A stretch of 64,000 nt of DNA, from contig DASYQZ010000097.1 of NCBI GenBank assembly GCA_036004865.1, positions 4,606 through 68,605 on the forward strand. The letters run 5' to 3'. Under the pieces are notes generated by a model. That model made no database searches and was not told the DNA's origin. It was given only the letters and a program-made list of their open reading frames with translations. Each line of letters opens with the position of its first letter. Position 1 is the first letter of the stretch. Position numbers and translations under genes: made by a program. Positions 6,500-63,250 of this stretch are shown here, in pieces. Origin of the DNA: Vicinamibacterales bacterium. Lineage in GTDB: Bacteria; Acidobacteriota; Vicinamibacteria; Vicinamibacterales; CAVVIG01.

Positions 6500-6501
6500 G
6501 A

Positions 6502-6657
6502 GATTGCAGATTGCAAATTGCAGAATGCAGATTGATTGCAGATTGCTGATTGGATTGTGCGGCTGTGCCGGACAGTCCGCAATTCGAAAATGCAATCTGC
6601 AAATCCCAATCTGCAATCAATCTGCAATCTGCAATTTGAAATCTGCAATGTACAATT
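6502..6657. repeat. palindromic tandem-heptamer array: (GATTGCA)n, a spacer, then (TGCAATC)n
   Basis: Left arm 6502-6557, right arm 6591-6657. The outer roughly 46 nt of the arms are reverse complements with 3 mismatches. The central spacer is itself a small hairpin. Confidence 0.9.
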
Positions 6658-6664
6658 CACGCTT

Positions 6665-7195
6665 ATGTCTATTCTGAAAGTCGCGCGCATGGGGCATCCG
6701 GTGCTGCGCGCGAAAGCGCGGGCGCTCGACAAGGGCGAGATCGGGAGCGCCGCGATTCAGAGGCTCATCGACGACATGATCGAGACGATGATCGAGTATC
6801 ACGGCGTCGGCCTCGCCGCGCCGCAGGTGCACGAGGCGGTGCGTCTCTTCGTCGCCGCGCTCGACGCGCCCCCCGAGGAAGGCGGCAAGGAGCCCGAACC
6901 GGTCGTGATCATCAATCCTGAGATTGTGCCCGTCGGCAGCGACACCGTCGAGGACTGGGAGGGGTGCCTGAGCATCCCGGAGATCCGCGGCCGCGTCCCG
7001 CGTGCGCGCGAGATCCGCGTGCGCGCCTTCGACCGGAAAGGCGATCGCGTCGAGCTGCGCGCGCACGATTTTCCGGCGCGCGTCATTCAGCACGAAACCG
7101 ATCATCTCGACGGCGTGCTGTTCCTCGATCGGATGCGATCGTTCGAGACGCTGGCCTTCCTCGACGAGTATTCGCGGTACTGGACTAAAGACTGA
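6665..7195 (+). CDS. def: peptide deformylase
   Basis: Motifs GVGLAAPQV, EGCLSIP and QHETDHLDG. Start trimmed to ATG 6665 (MSILKVARMGHPVL). Confidence 0.92.
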   Translation: MSILKVARMGHPVLRAKARALDKGEIGSAAIQRLIDDMIETMIEYHGVGLAAPQVHEAVRLFVAALDAPPEEGGKEPEPVVIINPEIVPVGSDTVEDWEGCLSIPEIRGRVPRAREIRVRAFDRKGDRVELRAHDFPARVIQHETDHLDGVLFLDRMRSFETLAFLDEYSRYWTKD

Positions 7196-8828
7196 GCCGC
7201 TTTTTCTCGAGCTGACGTTCGGACTGAAGCCGTTCGAGCTCGACTTCGGAGTGATCCGCGAACTGCATCGCCGCGGCGATGGCGCGGTGGCCGGCGTCGT
7301 CTGCGATGGCGCGGTGCATCAACTGGCAGATGCGCCGGTACGAGGGGTGCCCCTGGGGCCCGGTGCGCAGCTCGATGAGGTGCATCGCTTCGCGCGCGTT
7401 CATGTCCATGTAGAACCGCACGCGGTAGGCCATGACGACGGCGTACGGCGCGACGTCGCGCAGTTCGTGCGCGCGGAGCTGTTCGTAGAGCTCCGCGGAT
7501 CGATCCGTCACGCGCCGCCAATCGGCCAGCGCGCCGGCTTCCTCGATCGCCGCCGGCTCGGTGTAGCCGTGGCGCGTGCTGAGCGGCTGCCAGTCGAGCG
7601 TCAGCAGGCGATGGCGCTGCAGATCGCGGAAGGCGCCGTAGTCGGCGAGCACGTCGAAGCGATAGCTGGTGCGCTCGAACGCGCGGCCCGGCTTGTGGCG
7701 GCGGTTCCCGCGGCGCCCGACGTACGCCCGCAGCAGAGCGACGCGATCGTCGGCCGAGAGGCGGCGCGCCGCTTCCAACAACTGATCGTCCGGCAACGCC
7801 GACACCGGGTAGAGCGCGGCGGCCACGACCTTGAGCTCGCCGTCGGGATCGAAACCGGTCAGTGTGACCTCGTCGCGCGGGTCAGGCGCGAGGTCCTCGA
7901 CGAACGGATGCGCCACGGCGGCGAAATTGCGACGCGTCTCGGCGAGGTAGTCAATCCACCGGCCGCCGCGGTCCGGCTGATCGATCCGGGCGAGGAACGC
8001 AGGAATCACCTGACGGAGCTCGGTCAGGATCTGTTGGGCGCAGTCGCGCGCTTCCAGCAGCGGATGCGCGAACATCCGCAGCAGCAGCGCCTCGAACGCC
8101 TGACCGGTGCCGAAGAGGCCGACGTTCGATTGCGTCGCCGCCGGCAGCAGTCCGCGCAGCGTGTCGAGCGCTTTGGCGCGAATCACCGATTTGTAGACGG
8201 CGTCCGAATCAGCGGGCGACTTCGGATACTTCGCGCGGAAGTGCGATTCCATCGCCGGGATCCAGCGCGCATAGGTGTCGAACGCCTCGTCGAGCGTGCG
8301 GACGAACGCCTCGCGAAGGGGCGATCGAATGAGCTCGGCGGGGACGTGATATTTCCAGCGGCCGTCAGGCCGGTCGGTGTACGGCACGTAGCGCGTGGAC
8401 TGCTCGAGATACGCCATCAGGCGGCCCCATTCGAGCACTTTCGTCAGCACGTTCGAGACGCCTTCGCACGCGACGTGCGCGCCGCCGAGCTGCGCGACCG
8501 AGTCGTCTCCGTATTCGCTCAGGACGCGCGCGTAGAGTTTGTCGGCGCGCGCGGTGCCGACCGTGCTGGTGTGAGGCGAGGGGCCCGCGTTCGTCAACGC
8601 GGCTCCGTGCGCGAGATCTCCGACGAATTCGTCGAGGAAGAGGCGGCGGACCGATTTCGCGGATCGCGAGTAGCGCGCGAACAGCGCGCCCTTCACCGTC
8701 TCCGGCAAATTGGTCAGCGCGAAGACCGGGCGGTCCGTGTTGGTGAAGTACGGCGCGAGCGCGCGTGTCTCGTCCGGCGTGAACGTTTCGGCGGCCACAG
8801 TGGCCGCGTATTGTACCGCGGTCCACAC
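7185..8828 (-). CDS. double-length ThyX-like (FAD-dependent thymidylate synthase family) protein
   Basis: 547 aa. Contains N-terminal ALFARYSRS and C-terminal FRDLQRHRLLT segments that resemble ThyX motifs. The assignment is by motif recall only. Confidence 0.55.
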   Translation of the reverse strand: MWTAVQYAATVAAETFTPDETRALAPYFTNTDRPVFALTNLPETVKGALFARYSRSAKSVRRLFLDEFVGDLAHGAALTNAGPSPHTSTVGTARADKLYARVLSEYGDDSVAQLGGAHVACEGVSNVLTKVLEWGRLMAYLEQSTRYVPYTDRPDGRWKYHVPAELIRSPLREAFVRTLDEAFDTYARWIPAMESHFRAKYPKSPADSDAVYKSVIRAKALDTLRGLLPAATQSNVGLFGTGQAFEALLLRMFAHPLLEARDCAQQILTELRQVIPAFLARIDQPDRGGRWIDYLAETRRNFAAVAHPFVEDLAPDPRDEVTLTGFDPDGELKVVAAALYPVSALPDDQLLEAARRLSADDRVALLRAYVGRRGNRRHKPGRAFERTSYRFDVLADYGAFRDLQRHRLLTLDWQPLSTRHGYTEPAAIEEAGALADWRRVTDRSAELYEQLRAHELRDVAPYAVVMAYRVRFYMDMNAREAMHLIELRTGPQGHPSYRRICQLMHRAIADDAGHRAIAAAMQFADHSEVELERLQSERQLEKKRLSL

Positions 8829-8836
8829 GACGAAGA

Positions 8837-9556
8837 TTACATGTCAGAGTGAAGTCTGAGTTCACTCCGACCTCGCTCCGACTTCATTCCGACTCGTGTC
8901 GGAGTGAACTCTGACTTGAGTACGACTACGCCTAGCCGCTCGTGCCGCGACTCGTCCTCAACCGGGTTCGGCTTCAGTGTCGTCCAGCAGTTGCGAACGC
9001 TGTCCAGGTCCGCATCCGGGAGGGGATCAGCGCAAATCGCACGATGCGCCGCGCGGCGCTCTTCGTCGGTTGCGCCGAGTCCCAGATAAAGCTCGTGCGG
9101 GACGAGCCACTCGATCACCGCGCCAAGTCCATGCGCGCGGTAACTTGACCAATAATGCGCGTCCGGCGTCGCAACCATGCCCGCTCGCACGGGGTTCTGT
9201 TCGACGTACCTCAAACAAATGAGCCACTGCCGCTCATCCAGGAGGTGTTTCGCGCGATATCGACCCTCCCAGATGGTGCCCGTCCGACCGTACTTGCGAT
9301 TGAAATAACGGGTGTATCGCTCACCCAGCTGCTTCATCGCGCCGGCCATGGCCGTCTCGCTGTTGGGCGTCGCGATCAGATGGTAGTGCGTCGTCATCAC
9401 GACGAACGCGTGGACGGACGCGCCGTGGCATTCAGCTGCGGCTGCGAGGATCCTCAAGAAGACGTCACAATCTGCGTCTTGCGTGAAGATACCCATCCGG
9501 TTGTTCCCGCGGTTGTAGACGTGTGCGCTCACCTTCGGAAGATAGATTCGTCGCAT
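8837..9556 (-). CDS. REP-associated tyrosine transposase (RAYT; IS200/Y1 HUH family)
   Basis: HUH motif in VVMTTHYHLIATP. Catalytic Tyr region GTIWEGRYRAKHLLDE, plus YVEQNPVRAGM. The last roughly 25 codons are read out of the flanking inverted repeat, so the true C-terminus is uncertain. Confidence 0.8.
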   Translation of the reverse strand: MRRIYLPKVSAHVYNRGNNRMGIFTQDADCDVFLRILAAAAECHGASVHAFVVMTTHYHLIATPNSETAMAGAMKQLGERYTRYFNRKYGRTGTIWEGRYRAKHLLDERQWLICLRYVEQNPVRAGMVATPDAHYWSSYRAHGLGAVIEWLVPHELYLGLGATDEERRAAHRAICADPLPDADLDSVRNCWTTLKPNPVEDESRHERLGVVVLKSEFTPTRVGMKSERGRSELRLHSDM

Positions 9557-9767
9557 GTGAACCCCCGGCGATCAGTCTCAGCAATATCTGGTCTCAGCGA
9601 GATGCCAACGAAACTCGCGTGCTCGGTCGAACACGAGGCAGTTTCTGCCAACGCGACTTAACCGATCCGACGTGCCCGTAAGTCGTACTGAAGTCAGAGT
9701 TGAGTCAGAGTGAACTCCGACTCGAGTCGGACTTGAGTCGGAGTGATGTCGGAGTGAAGTCGGACTC
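8845..9767 (-). mobile_element. RAYT gene bracketed by roughly 90-bp imperfect terminal inverted repeats built from REP-like hairpins
   Basis: The reverse complement of 8845-8930 aligns with 9677-9767 (cgta(a)gtcgtact[c/g]aagtcagagtt..cactccgac..gagtcgg..). The arms contain palindromes such as CCGACTCGAGTCGG and begin with CGTAG / CGTAAG. Confidence 0.75.
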
Positions 9768-9780
9768 GTTACAATTGGGC

Positions 9781-9987
9781 ATGGTCTACATCTTCGGCAA
9801 GGACACGTGACCGTATACGCAAGCCGCCCGTGACGACTACCAGCGGCGGCACGTCGCGTTCGAGTACATCAACGTGAAAAAGAATCCCCCCGAATTGCAG
9901 CGGATGCTGGAGTTCAGCAAGGGACGCCGCGCGGTGCCCGTCATCGTCGACGAGGGGACGGTGACGATCGGGTTCGGCGGCACCTGA
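9781..9987 (+). CDS. small glutaredoxin-like protein with an in-frame TGA at the active-site position (candidate selenoprotein, or a pseudogene)
   Basis: ATG 9781. Translation is MVYIFGKDT-TGA(9808-9810)-PYTQAARDDYQRRHVAFEYINVKKNPPELQRMLEFSKGRRAVPVIVDEGTVTIGFGGT, ending at stop 9985-9987. The layout is a thioredoxin fold with cis-Pro VPV. The ORF is absent from the ORF track because of the TGA. Confidence 0.45.
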
Positions 9988-18018: not shown

Positions 18019-18038
18019 CGGCGCTCGTCACGCCAAAG

Positions 18039-18103
18039 GCAACCACGACAACACGAAACCACGAAAAAGACCAATCGTGCTTTCGTGTTTTCGTGGTTGC
18101 ATT
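18039..18103. repeat. family F3, inverted pair (hairpin)
   Basis: gcaaccacgacaacacgaaa (18039-18058) is the reverse complement of tttcgtgttttcgtggttgc (18081-18100) at 19 of 20 positions. Confidence 0.85.
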
Positions 18104-37501: not shown

Positions 37502-37514
37502 TCCGCGGCGGCTC

Positions 37515-37574
37515 GTAGCGCAGGCCTTCAGGCCTGCCAACAGCCGGCCGGGCAGCCCTGAAGGGCTGCGCTAC
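37515..37574. repeat. GTAG-type REP doublet (REPIN-like) between convergent genes; probably a bidirectional terminator
   Basis: GTAGCGCAGGCCTTCAGGCCTGCC, an 11-nt spacer, then GGGCAGCCCTGAAGGGCTGCGCTAC. Each arm is also a perfect 7-bp hairpin on its own. Confidence 0.75.
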
Positions 37575-40285
37575 TCGTCGCGCAGCGCGACCATCGGATC
37601 GAGGCGCAGCGCGGTCAGAGCCGGAACGATCGCGGCGAGCGCCGCTGCGGCGAGCAAGGCGAGAACCGTGGCCGTGAACGTGATCGGATCGATGGGGCTG
37701 ACGCCGAAGAGCAGCGCGCGAATGAGGTGACCGCCGGCCGCGGCAAGCAGCAGGCCGATCGCGCCGCCGGCCGCCACCGGCCTGAGCCCCTGCCCGACAA
37801 TCATCCGGAGTAAATCCGTTCGATTCGCACCGAGCGCGACGCGAATGCCGATTTCGCGCAGCCGCCGGCTGACGGAGAACGCGACGACGCCGTAGAGACC
37901 GCTGCAGGCCAGAACGAGGCCCATCAGGCCGAGCGCGGCGGCCGCCGCCGCGGCGATTCGGACCGGCGATAGCGCGAGGCGAACGTTCTCTTCGATCGAC
38001 TTGATCGAGACGAGCAGGTTTGGATCAGCCTCCGCCACGCGGGCGCGCAGCACGCTGACCACCGCCTCGGTGCGGCCGTCGTGCGCGATGAGCAGCCTGC
38101 CTTCCATGAAGCCGCGGATCGGCGTGTAGACCTTCGGACGGATCCGCCGGTCGACGGCGATGCCGCTCGTCGTCGCGACAACGCCGACGATTTCGTCGTC
38201 GCCGTCCTCGTCGCGGCCGAGGCGCACGAACCGGCCCAGCGGATCGGCGTCGCCGAATCGCGCGCGCGCGAATCGCTCGTCGACGACCGCGGCTCGCGCC
38301 CCGCGCCGCACGTCGTCGAGCGTGAAGCCGCGCCCGCGCAGGACGGCGACGCGCATCGTCTTGAAGTACTCGCCGCCCACCTGCTCGCATGCGACGTCGA
38401 ACCGCTCGGACGGCCGGCCGTCGGCGCCGATCGTCCTGGCGCGCATGCCGCAGCCGCCGAGCAGCGGATCGTTGACCGTCATCGATACGCCGACGACGCC
38501 CGCGCTCTGCGCGACGGCGTCGCGAAGGTTCATCAAGAGACGGCCGGCCGGTTCCGCCGTGTATTGCTCCTGCTGAAGGTTGAACGACGCAATCAGCACG
38601 TTGTCGGCGCGTTGACCGAGATCCATGCGCAGCGCGCGATCCAGACCGCGCACCAGCAGCCCCGCGTTCACGAGCAGGACGAGCGTGATGGCCGTCTGGC
38701 CGGCCACGAGCGCGCTTTGAAGCGGGATGCGCCATCCCGGCAGCGACCGGATGCCGCGCTCGGTCTTCAACGCAGGCGTCAAATCCCTGCGAATGAGCCG
38801 GAGCGCAGGGACGCTCCCGAAGAACAGACTCGTCGCGAGCGACACGGTGAGCGTGTAGGCGACGATCCACCAGTCGGGAGAGAGATCGATCTGGTGTCCG
38901 GTCATGGCGCTCTTGGGCACCGACGCGAGGACGAAGCGCGCGGCGGCCTGCGACAACATCAGGCCGATCACACCGCCGAGGGCGCCGATGACCGCGCTCT
39001 CGGTGAGGAACTGCCGCAACAAGCGCGCGCGGCCGGCGCCGAGCGAGACGCGAATCGCAATCTCGCGCCGCCGTCCGAGACCGCGCGCGAGCAGCATGTT
39101 CGCGACGTTCGCGCAGGCGATCAGCAAGACGAGGGAGACCGCGAGAAACGCGATCGCCATCACCGGCGCGCCGTTCTGCATGATCATCGGATAGTTGAGA
39201 AACGCGCCCGGCGACACGACGACGGTCGCCGTTCGATCGGGATTGTGCGGCAGCAGCGACTGCTGGCCGAGCACCGAGAGCTCGGCGCGCATCGCCGAAT
39301 CGGAGACGCCGGGTCTGCGCCGCGCGAGGATTTGAATCCAGCCGAACGTCGGCTCGTCGATCAGCATGCCGCCGGGCCGCGTAATGGCCTGCATGGTGTA
39401 GGGGAGCCACACGTCCGGCGTGACGACGAGCGGTCCCGTCGCGTCCGCGTCGGCAACGCCGACGATCGTGAACGGCGTCCGATTCAGGTTGACCGTTCGG
39501 CCGACGACGTCCTGTGCGGCGCCGAACTGTTGTTGCCATGTTGCCCACGACAACACGACGAGCGGCGCCGATCCAGGCGTCTTCGTTTCGTCGGCCGTGA
39601 AGAACCGGCCGAGCGCCGGCCTGGCGCCGATGAGCGGCAACAGGTTCTCGGACACGAGCTGAGCGCGAAGCTGTCCGCCCGCGGCGCACGTGCAGCTCAA
39701 TGACGCCTCGGCGACTGCCGCGAGATCGGCGGTTCGCGACTGCGATCGCATGAACACGAACTCGGGGAACGAAACGAAGTACGGAGTGCCATACGTGCCG
39801 CGCGAGCCGCCGCCGCGCGTCGACATGAAGACGTTCCGGATGGTGCCCGGATCCTTCACGGGCAGCGGGCGGAGCACGAGTGCGTAGACGAGCGTCACGA
39901 GCCCCGCGTTGACGGCGACGCCGAGCGCGATGGCGACGATGGCCGTCGACGCGAACACGGGCGTGCGCCGGAGACTGCGCCATGCGTACGTCAGATCGCG
40001 CGCCAGATCGTCGACGAGCGCCAACGGCCGCGCATCGCGGATTTGTTCCTTGTACTTGTCGACGCCGCCGAATTCGAGGCGCGCGCGGCGCTCGGCGTCG
40101 GCCGGGTTGAGGCCGCGGCGTACGTGATCGTCGATCCGGCTCCTGAGGTGAAACGCGAGCTCCTCGTCCAGGTCGCGTTCGAAGCGATGTCCCGCCTCCG
40201 CTCGCTCACCTCTCGAGCGAGCTTCGGCGAGGCTCGCCGAAGCGCCGGAGGCGCGAAGGCGGCGGCGGCGAAACAGGCGCCACAT
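37571..40285 (-). CDS. ADOP-family permease (duplicated FtsX domains) with a PadR-associated N-terminal prefix domain
   Basis: MWRLFRRRRL..ERDLDEELAFHL..GLNPADAERRARLEFGGV..DLTYAWRSLRRTPVFA. Two FtsX blocks (RRREIAIRVSLGAGR, RLREIGIRVALGANR). ATG 40285 lies 2 nt after the PadR stop. Confidence 0.85.
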   Translation of the reverse strand: MWRLFRRRRLRASGASASLAEARSRGERAEAGHRFERDLDEELAFHLRSRIDDHVRRGLNPADAERRARLEFGGVDKYKEQIRDARPLALVDDLARDLTYAWRSLRRTPVFASTAIVAIALGVAVNAGLVTLVYALVLRPLPVKDPGTIRNVFMSTRGGGSRGTYGTPYFVSFPEFVFMRSQSRTADLAAVAEASLSCTCAAGGQLRAQLVSENLLPLIGARPALGRFFTADETKTPGSAPLVVLSWATWQQQFGAAQDVVGRTVNLNRTPFTIVGVADADATGPLVVTPDVWLPYTMQAITRPGGMLIDEPTFGWIQILARRRPGVSDSAMRAELSVLGQQSLLPHNPDRTATVVVSPGAFLNYPMIMQNGAPVMAIAFLAVSLVLLIACANVANMLLARGLGRRREIAIRVSLGAGRARLLRQFLTESAVIGALGGVIGLMLSQAAARFVLASVPKSAMTGHQIDLSPDWWIVAYTLTVSLATSLFFGSVPALRLIRRDLTPALKTERGIRSLPGWRIPLQSALVAGQTAITLVLLVNAGLLVRGLDRALRMDLGQRADNVLIASFNLQQEQYTAEPAGRLLMNLRDAVAQSAGVVGVSMTVNDPLLGGCGMRARTIGADGRPSERFDVACEQVGGEYFKTMRVAVLRGRGFTLDDVRRGARAAVVDERFARARFGDADPLGRFVRLGRDEDGDDEIVGVVATTSGIAVDRRIRPKVYTPIRGFMEGRLLIAHDGRTEAVVSVLRARVAEADPNLLVSIKSIEENVRLALSPVRIAAAAAAALGLMGLVLACSGLYGVVAFSVSRRLREIGIRVALGANRTDLLRMIVGQGLRPVAAGGAIGLLLAAAGGHLIRALLFGVSPIDPITFTATVLALLAAAALAAIVPALTALRLDPMVALRDE
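40189..40254. repeat. family F2, copy 2 (inside the ADOP N-terminal prefix; opposite orientation to copy 1)
   Basis: The reverse complement reads gcgcctccggcgcttcggcgagcctcgccgaagctcgc..gagcgagcggaggcgggac. Confidence 0.85.
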
Positions 40286-40287
40286 GG

Positions 40288-40674
40288 TCACACCTCCTCG
40301 GGTTTCGCACGGAGCGCGGTGCCGATCGCGGCCACGAGCCGCTCCCACCATTCGGTTTCTTCACGGAGACGCTTCCGTCCGGCAGCGGTCAGCCGGTAGT
40401 ATTTGGCTCGACGGTTGTTGTCGGACGTGCCCCATTCGGTCGCGACGAGGCGCTGGCGCTGGAGGCGATACAACGCAGGATAGAGGGCGCCCTGCTCGAT
40501 CGCGAGCGCGTCGCCGGTGATCTGCTCGATTCTGAGGAGGATGCCGTAGCCGTGCAGCGGCCCGAGAGAGATCGCCTTCAGGATGAGCAGGTCGAGCGTG
40601 CCCGGCAGCAGTTCCGCGGCGTTGTCCACAGGGTCCACAGGGTCCACAGGGTCCACCGTGTCCCTCGGGGCCAT
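40288..40674 (-). CDS. PadR-family transcriptional regulator
   Basis: LDLLILKAISLGPLHGYGILLRIEQ..GALYPALYRLQRQRLV...RRAKYYRLTAAGRKRL. Confidence 0.9.
   Translation of the reverse strand: MAPRDTVDPVDPVDPVDNAAELLPGTLDLLILKAISLGPLHGYGILLRIEQITGDALAIEQGALYPALYRLQRQRLVATEWGTSDNNRRAKYYRLTAAGRKRLREETEWWERLVAAIGTALRAKPEEV
40624..40668. repeat. in-frame 9-bp tandem repeat in PadR codons 5-19
   Basis: gtccacagg x3, then gtccaccgt and gtccctcgg. Encodes (DPV)3 on the minus strand. Confidence 0.9.
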
Positions 40675-40751
40675 CGGCGACTCCTAAGTTGGTTAGGCAA
40701 GGTAGCGCCGCTCTCCTAAGTTGTCAAGGAGAAGCCGTTTTTAGAGGGTAC

Positions 40752-42941
40752 ATGAGACAAGGCACAGTCGTTCTGACGTTGGCCGCCGCGACGCTCGGCG
40801 CTGTCCTGGTGTCCGCGCAAAACAACGCCGCTCCGCCGTCACGTCTGCGCGGATTCTCGGTGGCGTCCAGCGCGTCCGAGCTCGAGCGCGAACGGATGTT
40901 CCAGGCCATGCCCGACGCGAAGCTCGCCGAAGCGGATTTCGACGTGATGACGGCCGAGCCGCATCACACCGGCTCGCCGTACGAGATCAAGCTGGCCGAT
41001 TACGTCGCCGATCGGTTCAAGACGTTCGGCTTCGACGTCTCGCGCGACGAGTACAGCGTGCTGCTGCCGTGGCCCGGCGAGCGCCGCCTCGACATCGTCG
41101 GGCCCGACCCGGTGAAGCTCGAGGTGGAGGAAGAAAAGATCCGCGGCGATCAATGGGCCGACATGCCCGGCATCCTGCCGGCCTACAACGCATACTCGCC
41201 GTCGGGCGACGTCACCGGCGAGATCGTCTACGTCAACTTCGGCATCCCCTCGGATTACGACACGCTGCAGAAGCTCGGCATCGACGTGAAGGGCAAGATC
41301 GTGCTCGCGCGCTACGGCGGAAGCTGGCGCGGGATCAAACCGAAAGTCGCGGCGGAGCACGGCGCCGTCGCCTGCCTCATTTATTCAGATCCGCACGAGG
41401 ACGGCTACTTCCAGGGCGAGGTGTATCCCGACGGTCCGTTTCGCGGCTGGGGGATGATTCAGCGCGGCAGCGTGATGGACATGCCGCGCTATCCCGGCGA
41501 TCCGTCGACACCCGATCGTCCATCGAAGCCGGGCGTGGCGCGGATTCCGATGGATCAGATCAAAACCTTCTCGCCTATTCCGGTGCAGCCGCTGTCGTAT
41601 CGCGACGGTGTCGAGCTGCTGAAGCGTCTCAAGGGTCCCGTTGCGCCGGAAGCGTGGCGCGGCGCGCTGCCGATCACCTACCACGTGGGTCCGGGTCCTG
41701 CGAGCGTCCACGTCAAACTGCAGATGGACTACGCGCAGCGGCGCGTGATCAACGTCGTCGGACGGATCGCGGGTCGCGAGTCTCCCGACGAGTGGGTCAT
41801 CGTCGGATCGCATCGCGATGCGTGGACGTTCGGCGCGTCGGATTCAGTCAGCGGTCACGTGTCGATGATGAGCGTGGCGCGTGCGTTCAGCGACATGATG
41901 AAGGCCGGCTGGAGGCCGCGCCGCACGTTGATCTTCGTGAGCTGGGACGGCGAGGAGCAGGGGCTGCTCGGATCGACGGAATGGGTGGAGGAGTTTGCGA
42001 CCGAGCTGCGGGCGAAGACCGCCGTGTACGTGAATCGCGATGCCGGTGCGGGCGGCTTGAACTTCAACAGCAGCGCGGTCCATTCGCTGACGCCGTTCGT
42101 CCACGAGCTGGCCCAGTCGATTCGGCCGGCGGGAGAGTCGAAGACCCTGTATGAAGGGTGGCTTGCCCGGGTGCGCGAACAGGCGCCGAAGCAGGAGGGT
42201 CAACCACCGCCGGCCGAGACCATCAAAACGCCGCCGGTGGGCGCGCTCGGATCGGGATCGGACTACACGGCATTTCTTGATCATGTCGGCATCACGTCGC
42301 TCGACATGGGCTTGAACGGTACCGGGGGCGACGGTACGTATCACTCCACGTACGACAATCCGTCGTGGTTCAAGAAATACATCGATCCTCAGTTCAAGTA
42401 CAGCGTTCTCGCCGCGCAGGTGACCGGCGTCGCGCTGCTGCGGCTCGTCGACGCCGAGGTGCTGCCGTTCGACGACGAGTCATATGGCAAGCAGATCCTC
42501 GAGTACGTGAACGAGATCGAGCAGCAGGCGACCAAGGCGTCGACGCCCGAAGCAAAAAATGACGCGAAGAAGATCGATTTCCGTGGATTGAAAGCCGCCG
42601 CCGAGAGCTTCGCGAAGGCGGGCGCCGATCTCCGCCGCCGCGCCGATGAAGTCGTACTACAGTCCGACTCCAGTCAGGCTGCAGCACGACTCATTGCAAT
42701 TCGTGACATCAATCACCGGCTGATGATGGCGGAGCGCGATCTGATCGAGCCACAGGGGCTGCCGGACCGGCCGTGGTTCCGGCACGTGATTTACGCGCCG
42801 GGGCTGTACACGGGCTACGGCGTGAAGACCATTCCCGGCGTGCGCGAGGCGGTCGATGCCGGCAACTATGCGCGCGCGGCCGATCAGGCGGCGATCGTCA
42901 TCCGCGCGCTGCAGCGCGCCGCGAAGACGCTATGGCCATAG
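40752..42941 (+). CDS. M28-family peptidase (glutamate carboxypeptidase II / transferrin-receptor-like)
   Basis: Signal MRQGTVVLTLAAATLGAVLVSAQ. PA domain, then ..GSHRDAW.FGA.D..SG.. and ..SWDGEEQGLLGSTEW.E.. C-terminal dimerisation-like helices. Confidence 0.85.
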   Translation: MRQGTVVLTLAAATLGAVLVSAQNNAAPPSRLRGFSVASSASELERERMFQAMPDAKLAEADFDVMTAEPHHTGSPYEIKLADYVADRFKTFGFDVSRDEYSVLLPWPGERRLDIVGPDPVKLEVEEEKIRGDQWADMPGILPAYNAYSPSGDVTGEIVYVNFGIPSDYDTLQKLGIDVKGKIVLARYGGSWRGIKPKVAAEHGAVACLIYSDPHEDGYFQGEVYPDGPFRGWGMIQRGSVMDMPRYPGDPSTPDRPSKPGVARIPMDQIKTFSPIPVQPLSYRDGVELLKRLKGPVAPEAWRGALPITYHVGPGPASVHVKLQMDYAQRRVINVVGRIAGRESPDEWVIVGSHRDAWTFGASDSVSGHVSMMSVARAFSDMMKAGWRPRRTLIFVSWDGEEQGLLGSTEWVEEFATELRAKTAVYVNRDAGAGGLNFNSSAVHSLTPFVHELAQSIRPAGESKTLYEGWLARVREQAPKQEGQPPPAETIKTPPVGALGSGSDYTAFLDHVGITSLDMGLNGTGGDGTYHSTYDNPSWFKKYIDPQFKYSVLAAQVTGVALLRLVDAEVLPFDDESYGKQILEYVNEIEQQATKASTPEAKNDAKKIDFRGLKAAAESFAKAGADLRRRADEVVLQSDSSQAAARLIAIRDINHRLMMAERDLIEPQGLPDRPWFRHVIYAPGLYTGYGVKTIPGVREAVDAGNYARAADQAAIVIRALQRAAKTLWP

Positions 42942-52853: not shown

Positions 52854-53912
52854 TCAGCCTTCGCCGTTCGCGGACTCCATCAATCGTTGCACCACGCCAT
52901 CCCAGGTGATCGACCGGGCGCGATCGTACCCCGCGTCGCCGAGGCTTCGAGCGCGCGCGCGGTCGGCCGCGAGTCGCGAGATGCCGGCTCCAAACGATTC
53001 GGGCGTCGGCTCGGCAACCAGGCCGTTCACGCCGTCTTCGACGAACTCCAGCGGACCGCCGGCGTCGCCGGTGGTGACGACCGGTTTGCGCGCGAGAAAC
53101 GCCTCGAGCGTCACATAGCCGTAGTCCTCGTCGAACGGCGGAAAGACGACCCCGAGCGCGCCGGCGTACAACCGTACCAGGTGCTCGGCGTCGACGCGGC
53201 CGGCGAACGTGACGCGATCGGCGACGCCTGCGGTCACCGCCGTTTCGGCGAGCTGTTCACGCAGCGGACCCTCGCCGACGACGAGGAGCCGGACGGCGCG
53301 ATCGGCATGCGCGAGCGCGCGAATGATCAGATCGACGCGTTTGTTCGCTTCGAGCCGGCCGACCGACAACACGTAGTCGCCGTACGGACCGGCGCGCAGC
53401 GCGCCGGCAAGCGGCGGCGGGTGATAGAGCGGTTCGGCCGTGATGCCGTTGTAGCGTTCGAGCCGCGCCGCGATGGTGCGCGCGATGGTGAAGAGCCGCG
53501 CCGACTCCGTCAGCATCTCCCGATCGAGCGCGATGAGCGTATCGCGGAGCCGCACGTCCGCTTCCTCGTGCGTGAACTCGCTGTACGGCGTGCCGCACAA
53601 ATCGTAAATCGGGCGGTGCTGGTGGCAGAGCCAGGTCACTTTGTTTGGATGGCGCACGAAGTACGTCGGGAATTTCGTCGCGATGACGGTGTCGATGCGC
53701 GTGCCGTTGGTCTCGGAGAGATCGACGAGCCGCCAGGCCGCCGCCTGCGCGAGCAGCTCCGCTTTCGGATACCACTTGAACGGAATCGACACGCGCTCGG
53801 CGCGGTACCCGTGGCGCCGGAGCTCGTCGACGAGGCTGCGCACGAGCAGTTCGGCGCCGCCGTGCACGAACGGCACCTGAGCCTCGCACACGAGAACGCT
53901 ACGACTCGGCAT
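52854..53912 (-). CDS. family 4 (GT-B) glycosyltransferase
   Basis: ..VGRLE.NKR.DL...A......L.VVGEGP.. and ..EDYGYV.LEAF...KPVV....GGP.EFV.DG.NG. Confidence 0.85.
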   Translation of the reverse strand: MPSRSVLVCEAQVPFVHGGAELLVRSLVDELRRHGYRAERVSIPFKWYPKAELLAQAAAWRLVDLSETNGTRIDTVIATKFPTYFVRHPNKVTWLCHQHRPIYDLCGTPYSEFTHEEADVRLRDTLIALDREMLTESARLFTIARTIAARLERYNGITAEPLYHPPPLAGALRAGPYGDYVLSVGRLEANKRVDLIIRALAHADRAVRLLVVGEGPLREQLAETAVTAGVADRVTFAGRVDAEHLVRLYAGALGVVFPPFDEDYGYVTLEAFLARKPVVTTGDAGGPLEFVEDGVNGLVAEPTPESFGAGISRLAADRARARSLGDAGYDRARSITWDGVVQRLMESANGEG

Positions 53913-54056
53913 CTGGTAATCGGGTAATCGGGTAATCGGGTAATCGGATTGTGCGATTGCACCACATCGTCGTTGTCGAGGCCATCACGGATTCATCGCG
54001 GCCCAATCCAGCAATCAATTACCCGATTACCAGATTACCCAATTACCAGATTCACC
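53913..54056. repeat. palindromic tandem-octamer array: (GGGTAATC)4, a roughly 70-nt spacer, then (GATTACCM)4
   Basis: The left arm (53913-53949) and right arm (54017-54056) are reverse complements at 31 of 34 aligned positions. The inner edge of the left arm is GGATTGTGCG, identical to 6552-6561. Confidence 0.9.
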
Positions 54057-55169: not shown

Positions 55170-55309
55170 GAGTCGAGCCCCGGATGGTACCACCGACCCT
55201 GACAACCGCAATTGTCAGAGGGTCTGACCAGTCAGACTCGTGACAATTCGCGAGGGCGAGGAAACGGCCGAAAATTAGGCGCAACTTACTGACGGGGTGG
55301 ATTTTGCGG

Positions 55310-63221: not shown

Positions 63222-63222
63222 A

Positions 63223-63250
63223 GGGATTGGGGATTAGGGATTTGGGATTC
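63223..63250 (+). repeat. tandem heptamer tract (GGGATTN)4 at the mraY-murD junction
   Basis: gggattg gggatta gggattt gggattc. It overlaps the putative TTG start of murD. Confidence 0.85.

Follow-up and report, generated by a model that had tools for sequence, protein, structure and literature searches.

REP-associated tyrosine transposases (RAYTs) cleave the hairpins of repetitive extragenic palindromic (REP) sequences, which are the cognates of the gene they flank and also occur as insertions within genes (PMC3479197, PMC3116915, PMC6006769, PMC3733652). Quentin et al. (2018, PMC6006769) treat their subclass 2.1 as equivalent to the Group 1 RAYTs of Bertels et al. (2017, PMC5581495) and, probably, to the TIRYTs, which were described with the 'TIRtron' and have GGGGWSAS as their inverted-repeat motif (Di Nocera et al. 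2013, PMC3733652). The longer TIRYTs contain a helix-turn-helix (HTH)-like domain (PMC6006769). Here, we analysed a stretch of 64,000 nt (the window) from contig DASYQZ010000097.1 of the metagenome-assembled genome of a soil Vicinamibacterales bacterium (Acidobacteriota; assembly GCA_036004865.1), which encodes a RAYT bracketed by inverted arrays of short repeats. To our knowledge, Group 1 RAYTs and TIRYTs form the largest and least understood RAYT group, have been reported without REP partners and have no known substrate.

From sequence comparisons, we consider it probable (roughly 0.6) that this locus is a 'TIRtron'-type RAYT module, in which a single-copy Y1 HUH gene that is not an insertion sequence (IS) and belongs to a TIRYT lineage without the HTH-like domain is framed by inverted copies of the DNA that its product recognises. 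The clade offers a candidate substrate for Group 1 RAYTs, a short conserved GTCNGAC core in phased repeats that both bracket the gene and are dispersed, and makes the substrate question directly testable with oligonucleotides. Compared with published TIRYTs and Group 1 RAYTs, the periodic dispersed arrays, the absence of an HTH domain and the cassette-like evolution are new, all within the RAYT/REP framework. No earlier description of periodic arrays was found in the literature on TIRYT follow-ups and on inverted tandem repeats in Acidobacteria.

The enzyme and its relatives

Judged by profile and fold comparisons, the product of the open reading frame (ORF) 8837-9556 is a Y1 HUH enzyme of the RAYT branch, as the initial annotation had proposed. 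It scores 38.2 bits against Pfam Y1_Tnp (PF01797; gathering cut-off 23), which places it in the Y1/IS200-RAYT family, and its best NCBIfam model is REP_Tyr_transpos (NF047646) with 66.7 bits, under the equivalog cut-off of 80. Some of its homologues are named 'REP-associated tyrosine transposase' at JGI. A single-sequence search of the Protein Data Bank (PDB) was weak (E. coli TnpA_REP, 4ER8, at E 0.62) and a profile was needed for significance; the profile built from 23 RAYT homologues, whose alignment also served to assess residue conservation, retrieved 4ER8 as the top match (E 1.2e-6) with ISDra2 TnpA behind it. An AlphaFold (AF2) model of the protein (pLDDT 85.5; residues 1-190 confident) likewise matched 4er8_A first in Foldseek (E 6.5e-7, TM 0.74), followed by the IS200/IS605 transposases of ISDra2, IS200 and IS608. 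The window contains only this one Y1 gene.

Both histidines of the HUH motif, which had been read correctly as THYHL (H57-Y58-H59), are without variation across the 23 homologues, and so are Y117, N121 and P122 of the YVEQNP motif. Y117 is aligned in both HMMER alignments with Y115 of E. coli TnpA_REP, the nucleophile of that enzyme. The tyrosine that the initial annotation had regarded as the RAYT-type residue, Y100 in the conserved RAYT motif WEGRYRAK, is Y or F among the homologues, and the predicted catalytic residue is instead the invariant Y117. Because the HUH and Tyr residues are invariant, catalysis appears to be maintained in this clade. A start at the ATG at 9556 is favoured by conservation of R3 and P7 near the N terminus among homologues; the NCBI version of the protein, which is 100% identical, has 231 aa.

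For direct pairwise comparison, reference TIRYT and RAYT sequences were taken from PMC3733652 (Additional file 5). The window RAYT shares 41-42% identity over 186-209 aa with the TIRYTs hch_1378, pfs_148A and psu_2716 (E 3e-53 to 2e-51) and 35-42% identity with these three, sml_1152 and sml_4509 taken together (E 3e-53 to 1e-39), compared with 23-29% for the canonical RAYTs eco b228, sml 2816 and pfs 3939 (E 1e-4 to 1e-12). By pairwise similarity and motifs, the enzyme groups with TIRYT / RAYT Group 1 / subclass 2.1. Its motifs (THYH, WE, YVEQNP and WSSY) and the length of ~203 aa fit subclass 2.1 ([NT]H[YF]H, WE, Y[VI]E[QL]NP and WSSY; Table 1 of PMC6006769). As in TIRYTs, the gene is situated between terminal inverted repeats, the motif of which is an exact GGGGWSAS (GGGGTCAG/GGGGTCAC) at the homologous loci L190, L193 and L195 and a derived form, AGTCAGAG / AGTCGGAC, in the window. 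Unlike the TIRYT references of ~240-300 aa, the proteins of the window clade end at ~203 aa and lack the C-terminal HTH-like (DnaA_C / HTH_23 / HTH_28-type) domain; the alignment with the references ends at reference residue ~193, where this domain begins, and a Pfam search with the C-terminal 109 aa (residues 131-239, E<=10) yielded zero matches and no HTH. Further differences concern the repeats: the inverted copies have multiplied to form strictly periodic tandem arrays (9-13 nt per period; 8 units of 11 nt here), and array-only copies of the window family are dispersed, whereas the published entry for subclass 2.1 reads 'REP: no'. The long-form homologue with a C-terminal domain (P0109, at L195) has single inverted repeats and the short forms all have arrays, which in so small a sample is a lead only.

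With canonical REP/BIME-RAYT and REPIN-RAYT systems (E. coli TnpA_REP, Pseudomonas Group 2/3) the locus shares the fold and catalytic layout, with 4ER8 as best structural match, a gene that is present once in the window, probably at a fixed locus, with inverted cognate repeats on both sides, and many short palindromic copies elsewhere, some of them in frame within genes. It differs from them in that no GTAG foot is conserved beside the terminal unit of the repeats, for which reason the elements are not GTAG-REPs. Furthermore, the repeat bodies consist of 3-8 periodic 11-nt units instead of one 20-40-nt hairpin, protein identity is low and the NCBIfam score lies under the equivalog cut-off, and the cassette diverges much faster than the backbone and is incongruent with it, whereas RAYT evolution has been reported to be slow and congruent. 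The TnpA proteins of IS200/IS605 elements (IS608, ISDra2), the next-best sequence and structure matches, share the HUH and single-Tyr chemistry and, by analogy, probably a single-stranded hairpin substrate. In contrast to their Y-x3-Q, the window enzyme has Y-x3-NP; in addition, it has no tnpB, is present once in the window and its gene is not itself dispersed. TnpA(Y1) class 3 of Acidobacteria/Planctomycetes, with ~600 copies in Solibacter usitatus (PMC6006769), was considered for the shared phylum and the CnGA foot and rejected, as its motifs are NHVH, W[TA] and YV[VI]xEQ compared with THYH, WE and YVEQNP here.

Flanking arrays and their dispersed copies

The RAYT gene is flanked by two arrays of equal length (Table 1), within which the arms 8853-8927 and 9692-9766 form ungapped inverted repeats of 75 nt with 80% complementarity. 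The flanks had been annotated as reverse complements with indels; the complementarity holds, and the indels are only apparent, as the arms differ by whole units. Each 11-nt unit comprises AGTCNGAST plus two variable bases and is a small palindrome, which exists in a forward (AGTC.GAGT), a reverse (ACTC.GACT) and a symmetric form (AGTC.GACT), and AGTCGTACT represents a special terminal unit at the gene-proximal end of both arms. CGTAG (reverse complement of 8926-8930) and CGTAAG (9677-9682) at the inner ends of the arms, as well as the palindrome CCGACTCGAGTCGG at 9717-9730, are present as annotated. The unit pattern AGTCNGASTNNASTC, allowing up to one mismatch, has 24 matches in the window compared with 0.74 expected, and none of 100 shuffles reached 24. 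Folded as single-stranded DNA, the left array gives -21.7 / -22.4 kcal/mol, with a z-score of -4.5 on both strands relative to shuffles, and in the orthologous locus L146 (89%-identity RAYT) this array is 90.7% identical and contains the same 8 units. An Rfam scan of the whole window matched no family, and a promoter/terminator consensus scan of 8700-9900 gave nothing useful, with no sigma-70 consensus match in the leader.

Table 1. Features of the RAYT locus and further copies of its repeat family in the window
Feature	Position	Strand	Remarks
RAYT/TIRYT-type Y1 HUH endonuclease gene	8837..9556	(-)	239 aa; stop codon 8837-8839; conserved core, residues 1-~195
HUH motif codons, H57-Y58-H59	9380..9388	(-)	direct sequence reading; H57 and H59 invariant in 23 homologues
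Predicted catalytic tyrosine, Y117 in LRYVEQNPV	9206..9208	(-)	Y-x3-NP, class 2 / RAYT type; invariant in homologue alignment
Array-RAYT-array cassette	8822..9766		divergent against conserved backbone; left edge approximate (8821-8841), right edge 9766/9767
Downstream (left) array	8842..8927		8 tandem 11-nt units, 86 nt; gene-proximal terminal unit AGTACGACT (reverse complement AGTCGTACT); self-complementary
Upstream (right) array	9681..9766		8 tandem 11-nt units, 86 nt; gene-proximal terminal unit AGTCGTACT; palindrome CCGACTCGAGTCGG inside
Cassette-specific leader/promoter region	9557..9680	(-)	between RAYT start codon and upstream array
Dispersed copy of the 11-nt family	42650..42692		4 units, palindromic, terminal units at both ends (AGTCGTACT ... 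AGCACGACT)
Short intergenic relative	55206..55250		AATTGTCAGAG-GGTCTGACC-AGTCAGACTC-GTGACAATT; two cores (GTCNGAC) spaced by 10 nt; carries the flank tag of the family

Comparison of 13 homologous loci, with RAYT identities of 49-91% and from several genomic contexts, revealed inverted repeats on either side of the RAYT at all 13 and the core GTCNGAC/GGGTCAGAC (GTCNGAC/GTCNGAG) at 12. They occur singly or in tandem, the period being 9, 10/20, 11 or 13 nt (most often 11), and three unrelated unit sequences share the 11-nt period. L001, L146, L163 and L165 contain 11-nt arrays of 3-8 units, L004 contains mixed 11-, 15- and 26-nt repeats based on AGTC.GACT units, and L008 and L009 contain 20-nt (2 x 10) units. 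L192 has ~15 and ~10 units of the 11-nt GTCGGAGA, L191 has 9-nt GTGTCAGAC units, L190 and L193 have 13-nt GGGGTCAGACCCC units, and L195 has a single 25-nt inverted repeat, AAATTAGGGTCAGACTCGATTTAAT. The exception to the shared core is L194, the 11-nt arrays of which are built from a different unit. L008 and L009 encode an identical RAYT protein (P0007) and differ about twofold in their arrays, with 4.3/2.8 and 7.3/7.8 copies of the 20-nt unit, respectively, and arms of up to 141 nt; array copy number therefore changes quickly.

These comparisons support the interpretation of the flanks as cognate repeats of the enzyme. The initial annotation had proposed a RAYT with cognate REPs, and while cognate flanks are borne out by the homologous loci, the classical REP arrangement is not, given the periodicity of the arrays, the unconserved GTAG and the closer relationship to TIRYTs (41%) than to RAYTs (23-29%). 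Nor is the flank sequence unique, as its family is dispersed and flanking repeats surround every homologue examined. Provisionally, and judging by shared sequence, the repeat family served by the enzyme would be the 11-nt AGTCNGAST family. The 7/8-nt inverted arrays and the GTAG doublet at 37515, which also occur in the window, were set aside as substrates because neither carries the GTCNGAC core.

The ORF had been noted to read about 25 codons into its own flank, and the overlap with the left arm (8840-8927) indeed amounts to ~29 codons. The last ~36 of the 239 aa are non-conserved and encoded by the left array (pLDDT <55), and residues 195-239 are predicted to be disordered. Because orthologues stop near residue 203 and the tail is predicted to be disordered, it is regarded as a by-product of a stop-codon-free array; it is kept in the 89%-identical relative L146. 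Low-complexity C-terminal tails (e.g. KVSDVSDTPEAATVSVVSDVSDT) that resemble translated downstream arrays were also observed in the homologues P0014, P0018, P0022, P0034 and P0049, and ORF over-extension into the array seems to be common in this RAYT clade. In practical terms, such arrays over-extend ORFs, here by a 36-aa tail, and form in-frame insertions within annotated genes.

No other copy of the repeat had been reported in the 64 kb, a statement contradicted by the copies at 42650-42692 and 55206-55250. The former lies in frame within an ORF for a GCPII-like M28 peptidase (40689-42941), and its rare terminal unit AGTCGTACT has 4 matches in the window compared with 0.07 expected. Two metagenome contigs (L130 and L134) carry the same element at the same place of the orthologous peptidase gene. 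Alignment with human GCPIII shows an 8-aa insertion in this region; a clean 45-nt in-frame insertion was therefore dropped as a description, the 8 aa alone leaving it ambiguous. The copy at 55206-55250 folds as single-stranded DNA into a hairpin of -14.3 kcal/mol (z -4.3).

In a scan of metagenomes with a 26-nt family pattern, 60 contigs were identified as carrying the 11-nt family, and 22 of these came from a single soil sample; 4 of the 60 contain a RAYT and 56 do not. On these contigs the dispersed copies consist of arrays only, never of the gene, and comprise 3-8 units with an adjacent-unit spacing of exactly 11 nt nearly throughout. The scan of reference genomes used a 15-base pattern (AGTCGTACTNNAGTCNGA), and the matches listed are mostly chance matches; among them, one genome was informative, an Acidobacteria metagenome-assembled genome (MNEX01) with at least 5 matches on at least 4 contigs. 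No conserved target or flank was found upstream of the terminal unit in 69 non-redundant copies, which exhibit a weak C(A/G) preference (C39 G22 T7 A1 at position -2 and A30 G19 T12 C8 at position -1). Subfamilies have tags beside the arrays, CATTACT| and AATTGTNACG|, which may represent the element end, a -10-like promoter hexamer or a target. At the variable positions of 40 arrays, self-complementarity was above that of shuffled controls (mean z 1.37; z > 2 in 12 of 40). This comparison of hairpin and iteron expectations is positive on average and heterogeneous, and it does not separate selection for pairing from an origin by inverted duplication.

The array-gene-array cassette and its locus

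Per-feature identities were computed relative to L008, L163, L004 and L146. In comparison with L008, the backbone is conserved at the DNA level (def 90.3%, thyX 91.3%, selenoprotein gene 94.2%, ABC gene 90.1%), whereas the RAYT core (68.5%), the leader (54%) and the arrays (66-73%) are divergent. At the right edge, identity returns to 93% directly outside the array (9767-9780), and at the left edge it is regained at a conserved GCGGTACAATACGCGGCCAC upstream of thyX. ThyX places L008 (95.1%) closest to the window, ahead of L146 (91.5%), L163 (88.2%) and L004 (87.0%); the RAYT order, L146 (90.8%), L163 (72.9%), L008 (66.2%) and L004 (63.7%), disagrees with it. As the RAYT identity lies in the 60s for DNA as well as protein, the divergence looks, at the sequence level, old rather than like a recent burst. 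A ThyX gene adjoins the RAYT at six loci (L004/L006, L008, L146, L163, L190 and L192), down to 51% RAYT identity, most of which also contain the selenoprotein and ABC genes. The simplest reading of these identities is that array, gene and array form a discrete unit that is replaced at a fixed site, with the array type changing along with the enzyme allele. This is relevant to the picture of RAYTs and their repeats as partners that co-evolve slowly and are inherited vertically, both through the change in copy number at identical protein sequence and through the joint change of enzyme and array type in a cassette replaced at a fixed locus.

Divergently from the RAYT, the window encodes a glutaredoxin-like UXX-star selenoprotein (9781-9987, forward strand) with an in-frame TGA at 9808-9810, which scores 112.6 bits against NCBIfam NF041114 (cut-off 72) when the TGA is read as Cys. 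The fold of a GC-rich hairpin following this TGA is no better than that of shuffles (z -0.7). Gene callers had cut the selenoprotein gene to a 37-aa ORF in related contigs. The ThyX-like ORF (7185-8828, reverse strand) encodes ~537-547 aa, which is roughly double the length usual for ThyX, contains two Thy1 stretches and scores 54 against TIGR02170, under the cut-off of 87.9. Judging by conservation with L008, L190 and others, translation of this ORF probably starts at the GTG at 8798 and not at 8828. Hexamers resembling a -10 element (TACAAT) are located at 9770-9775 (+), 6651-6656 (+) and 8810-8815 (-), 5-11 nt 5' of the starts of the selenoprotein gene (ATG 9781), def (ATG 6665) and thyX (GTG 8798), suggesting that these mRNAs may be leaderless or near-leaderless. 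Array ends lie 3-4 nt before TACAAT-type hexamers, and many dispersed 11-nt arrays end in ...GACT-NNNN-ACAAT(T) at a fixed distance. The ACAAT(T) tag could be an outward-facing promoter element, the element end or a target preference.

Mechanism, alternative explanations and other repeats

By analogy with the complexes solved for RAYT and for IS608/ISDra2, we infer that the arrays are mobilised by the enzyme through hairpin binding, cutting and rejoining, stepwise change by 11 nt and export. In this Vicinamibacterales clade the recognition motif would be the GTCNGAC/GTCNGAG core, related to GGGGWSAS of TIRYTs and amplified head to tail into arrays whose period is close to a helical turn, in the window 8 x 11 nt on each side. 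Where the arrays become single-stranded, as may happen at replication forks, stretches of forward units may pair with stretches of reverse units into long imperfect hairpins, which the enzyme would bind and of which it would cut and rejoin one strand via Y117 and the HUH metal site. Cutting and rejoining between units in different registers could lead to gain or loss of whole 11-nt units, and transfer to other single-stranded sites could seed the scattered short copies of 3-8 units, including those in frame within genes. The cassette itself would be exchanged or replaced between lineages at its place beside the UXX-star selenoprotein and ThyX genes, with enzyme and array type changing together.

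Several observations weigh against this interpretation. The folding of the right array exceeds chance only weakly (z -2.4 on the forward and -1.3 on the reverse strand), the arms of L192 are each one-directional and can pair only with one another across the gene, and several dispersed arrays (e.g. L149, L150 and L176) are one-directional runs without an internal hairpin. The excess self-complementarity could be a mere trace of inverted-duplication origin, the enzymes of subclass 2.1 are reported to have no REP-like partners ('REP: no'; PMC6006769), and array formation may be independent of this enzyme, given that RAYT-free arrays of 7-9-nt units occur in the same contigs. Some of these points would fit double-stranded protein-binding sites instead, iteron- or operator-like and phased at about one helical turn, with the RAYT or a host factor coating one face of the duplex; such arrays would regulate the RAYT and its neighbours or structure the chromosome, and would disperse and change units by replication slippage and recombination rather than by HUH cleavage. 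We regard this explanation as possible, though unlikely. It would account for periods of 9, 10, 11 and 13 nt near the helical turn, for three unrelated unit sequences at 11 nt, for units that are small palindromes typical of dimer sites, for one-directional arrays in which a hairpin is impossible, and for arrays abutting -10-like TACAAT hexamers that lie 5-9 nt ahead of start codons, and the longer TIRYTs do have an HTH-like domain (PMC6006769). However, the window clade lacks that domain, the Y1 HUH enzymes with solved complexes among the top structural matches (4ER8, IS608, ISDra2) bind single-stranded hairpins, hairpin complementarity is in excess at variable positions, and the invariant HUH and Tyr residues point to maintained catalysis. 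Going further than our preferred reading of a TIRtron-type module, it is doubtful, though conceivable, that the enzyme is an array-building HUH recombinase that cuts at the same position in each unit and adds, removes and exports 11-nt units, generating helically phased arrays, with matched enzyme/array 'alleles' swapped as cassettes at one site and the 7-9-nt arrays representing a wider class made similarly. If this were true, it would constitute a specificity-switching arrangement not described for RAYTs, and the 7-9-nt inverted tandem arrays would be a wider, undescribed class of hairpin repeats.

That the arrays are just one of several slippage-prone hairpin-repeat families of intergenic DNA, with no functional link to the RAYT, appears improbable. 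Inverted arrays of 7-9-nt units are indeed common without a RAYT nearby (23 in 461 kb), their unit families recur and three lie in the window, but inverted repeats accompany the RAYT at 13 of 13 loci, mostly with one shared core that matches the motif published for TIRYT flanks, and the array type shifts with the RAYT allele against a constant backbone. A canonical REP-RAYT system (REPtron), in which GTAG-footed REP hairpins are mobilised by a Group 2/3-type RAYT, is a little less probable still and was largely refuted by the unconserved GTAG and by identities of 23-29% to canonical RAYTs versus 41% to TIRYTs. CGTAG / CGTAAG at the inner arm ends, E. coli TnpA_REP as best solved-structure match, REP_Tyr_transpos as best NCBIfam model and the JGI names of some homologues agree with such a system, in contrast to the periodic structure of the repeats, which are not 20-40-nt hairpins, to the sub-cut-off NCBIfam score and to the true GTAG-REP doublet at 37515-37574, which shows no relationship to the flanks. 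The most improbable explanation is an active insertion sequence of the IS200 type with long inverted repeats at its termini: the Pfam domain name ('Transposase IS200 like'), the sharp cassette edges and a history at odds with the backbone would be expected of one, whereas the gene is single-copy in the window and apparently occupies the same chromosomal site down to 51% identity, has Y-x3-NP rather than the Y-x3-Q of IS200 and no tnpB, and what is dispersed is always the arrays and never the gene.

The window contains further repeats that are unrelated to the RAYT flanks. Three pairs of inverted short-unit arrays, each a long hairpin with repetitive arms, are located at 6501-6552 / 6588-6649 (AGATTGC x8), 18036-18064 / 18075-18103 (AACCACGA x3) and 53911-53947 / 54018-54052 (ATCGGGTA x4.6). 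Across 461 kb of related contigs, Tandem Repeats Finder (TRF) identified 23 inverted tandem pairs with units of 7-9 nt, none of them near a RAYT, with recurring unit families such as ATTGCAG, CACGAA(A/G)A, GGGTAATC and ACACAAAGG, and no earlier account of such pairs was found in the literature; an ATTGCAG array is situated upstream of the deformylase gene both in the window and in L008 (4076-4235). Canonical GTAG-footed REPs are present at 37508-37581 (doublet 37515-37574) as GTAGCGCAGGCC-TTCA-GGCCTGC and its inverted partner, with 2 matches compared with 0.04 expected. Similar GTAGCGCAGCCC hairpins follow stop codons in L008, L130 and L134, with a longer-stem variant in L073, and the doublet presumably represents a separate REP family served by another enzyme. 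Two perfect tandem repeats are likewise intergenic, GTCCACAGG x3.7 at 40624-40656, just 5' of the M28 peptidase ORF, and AGGGATT x4 at 63222-63249.

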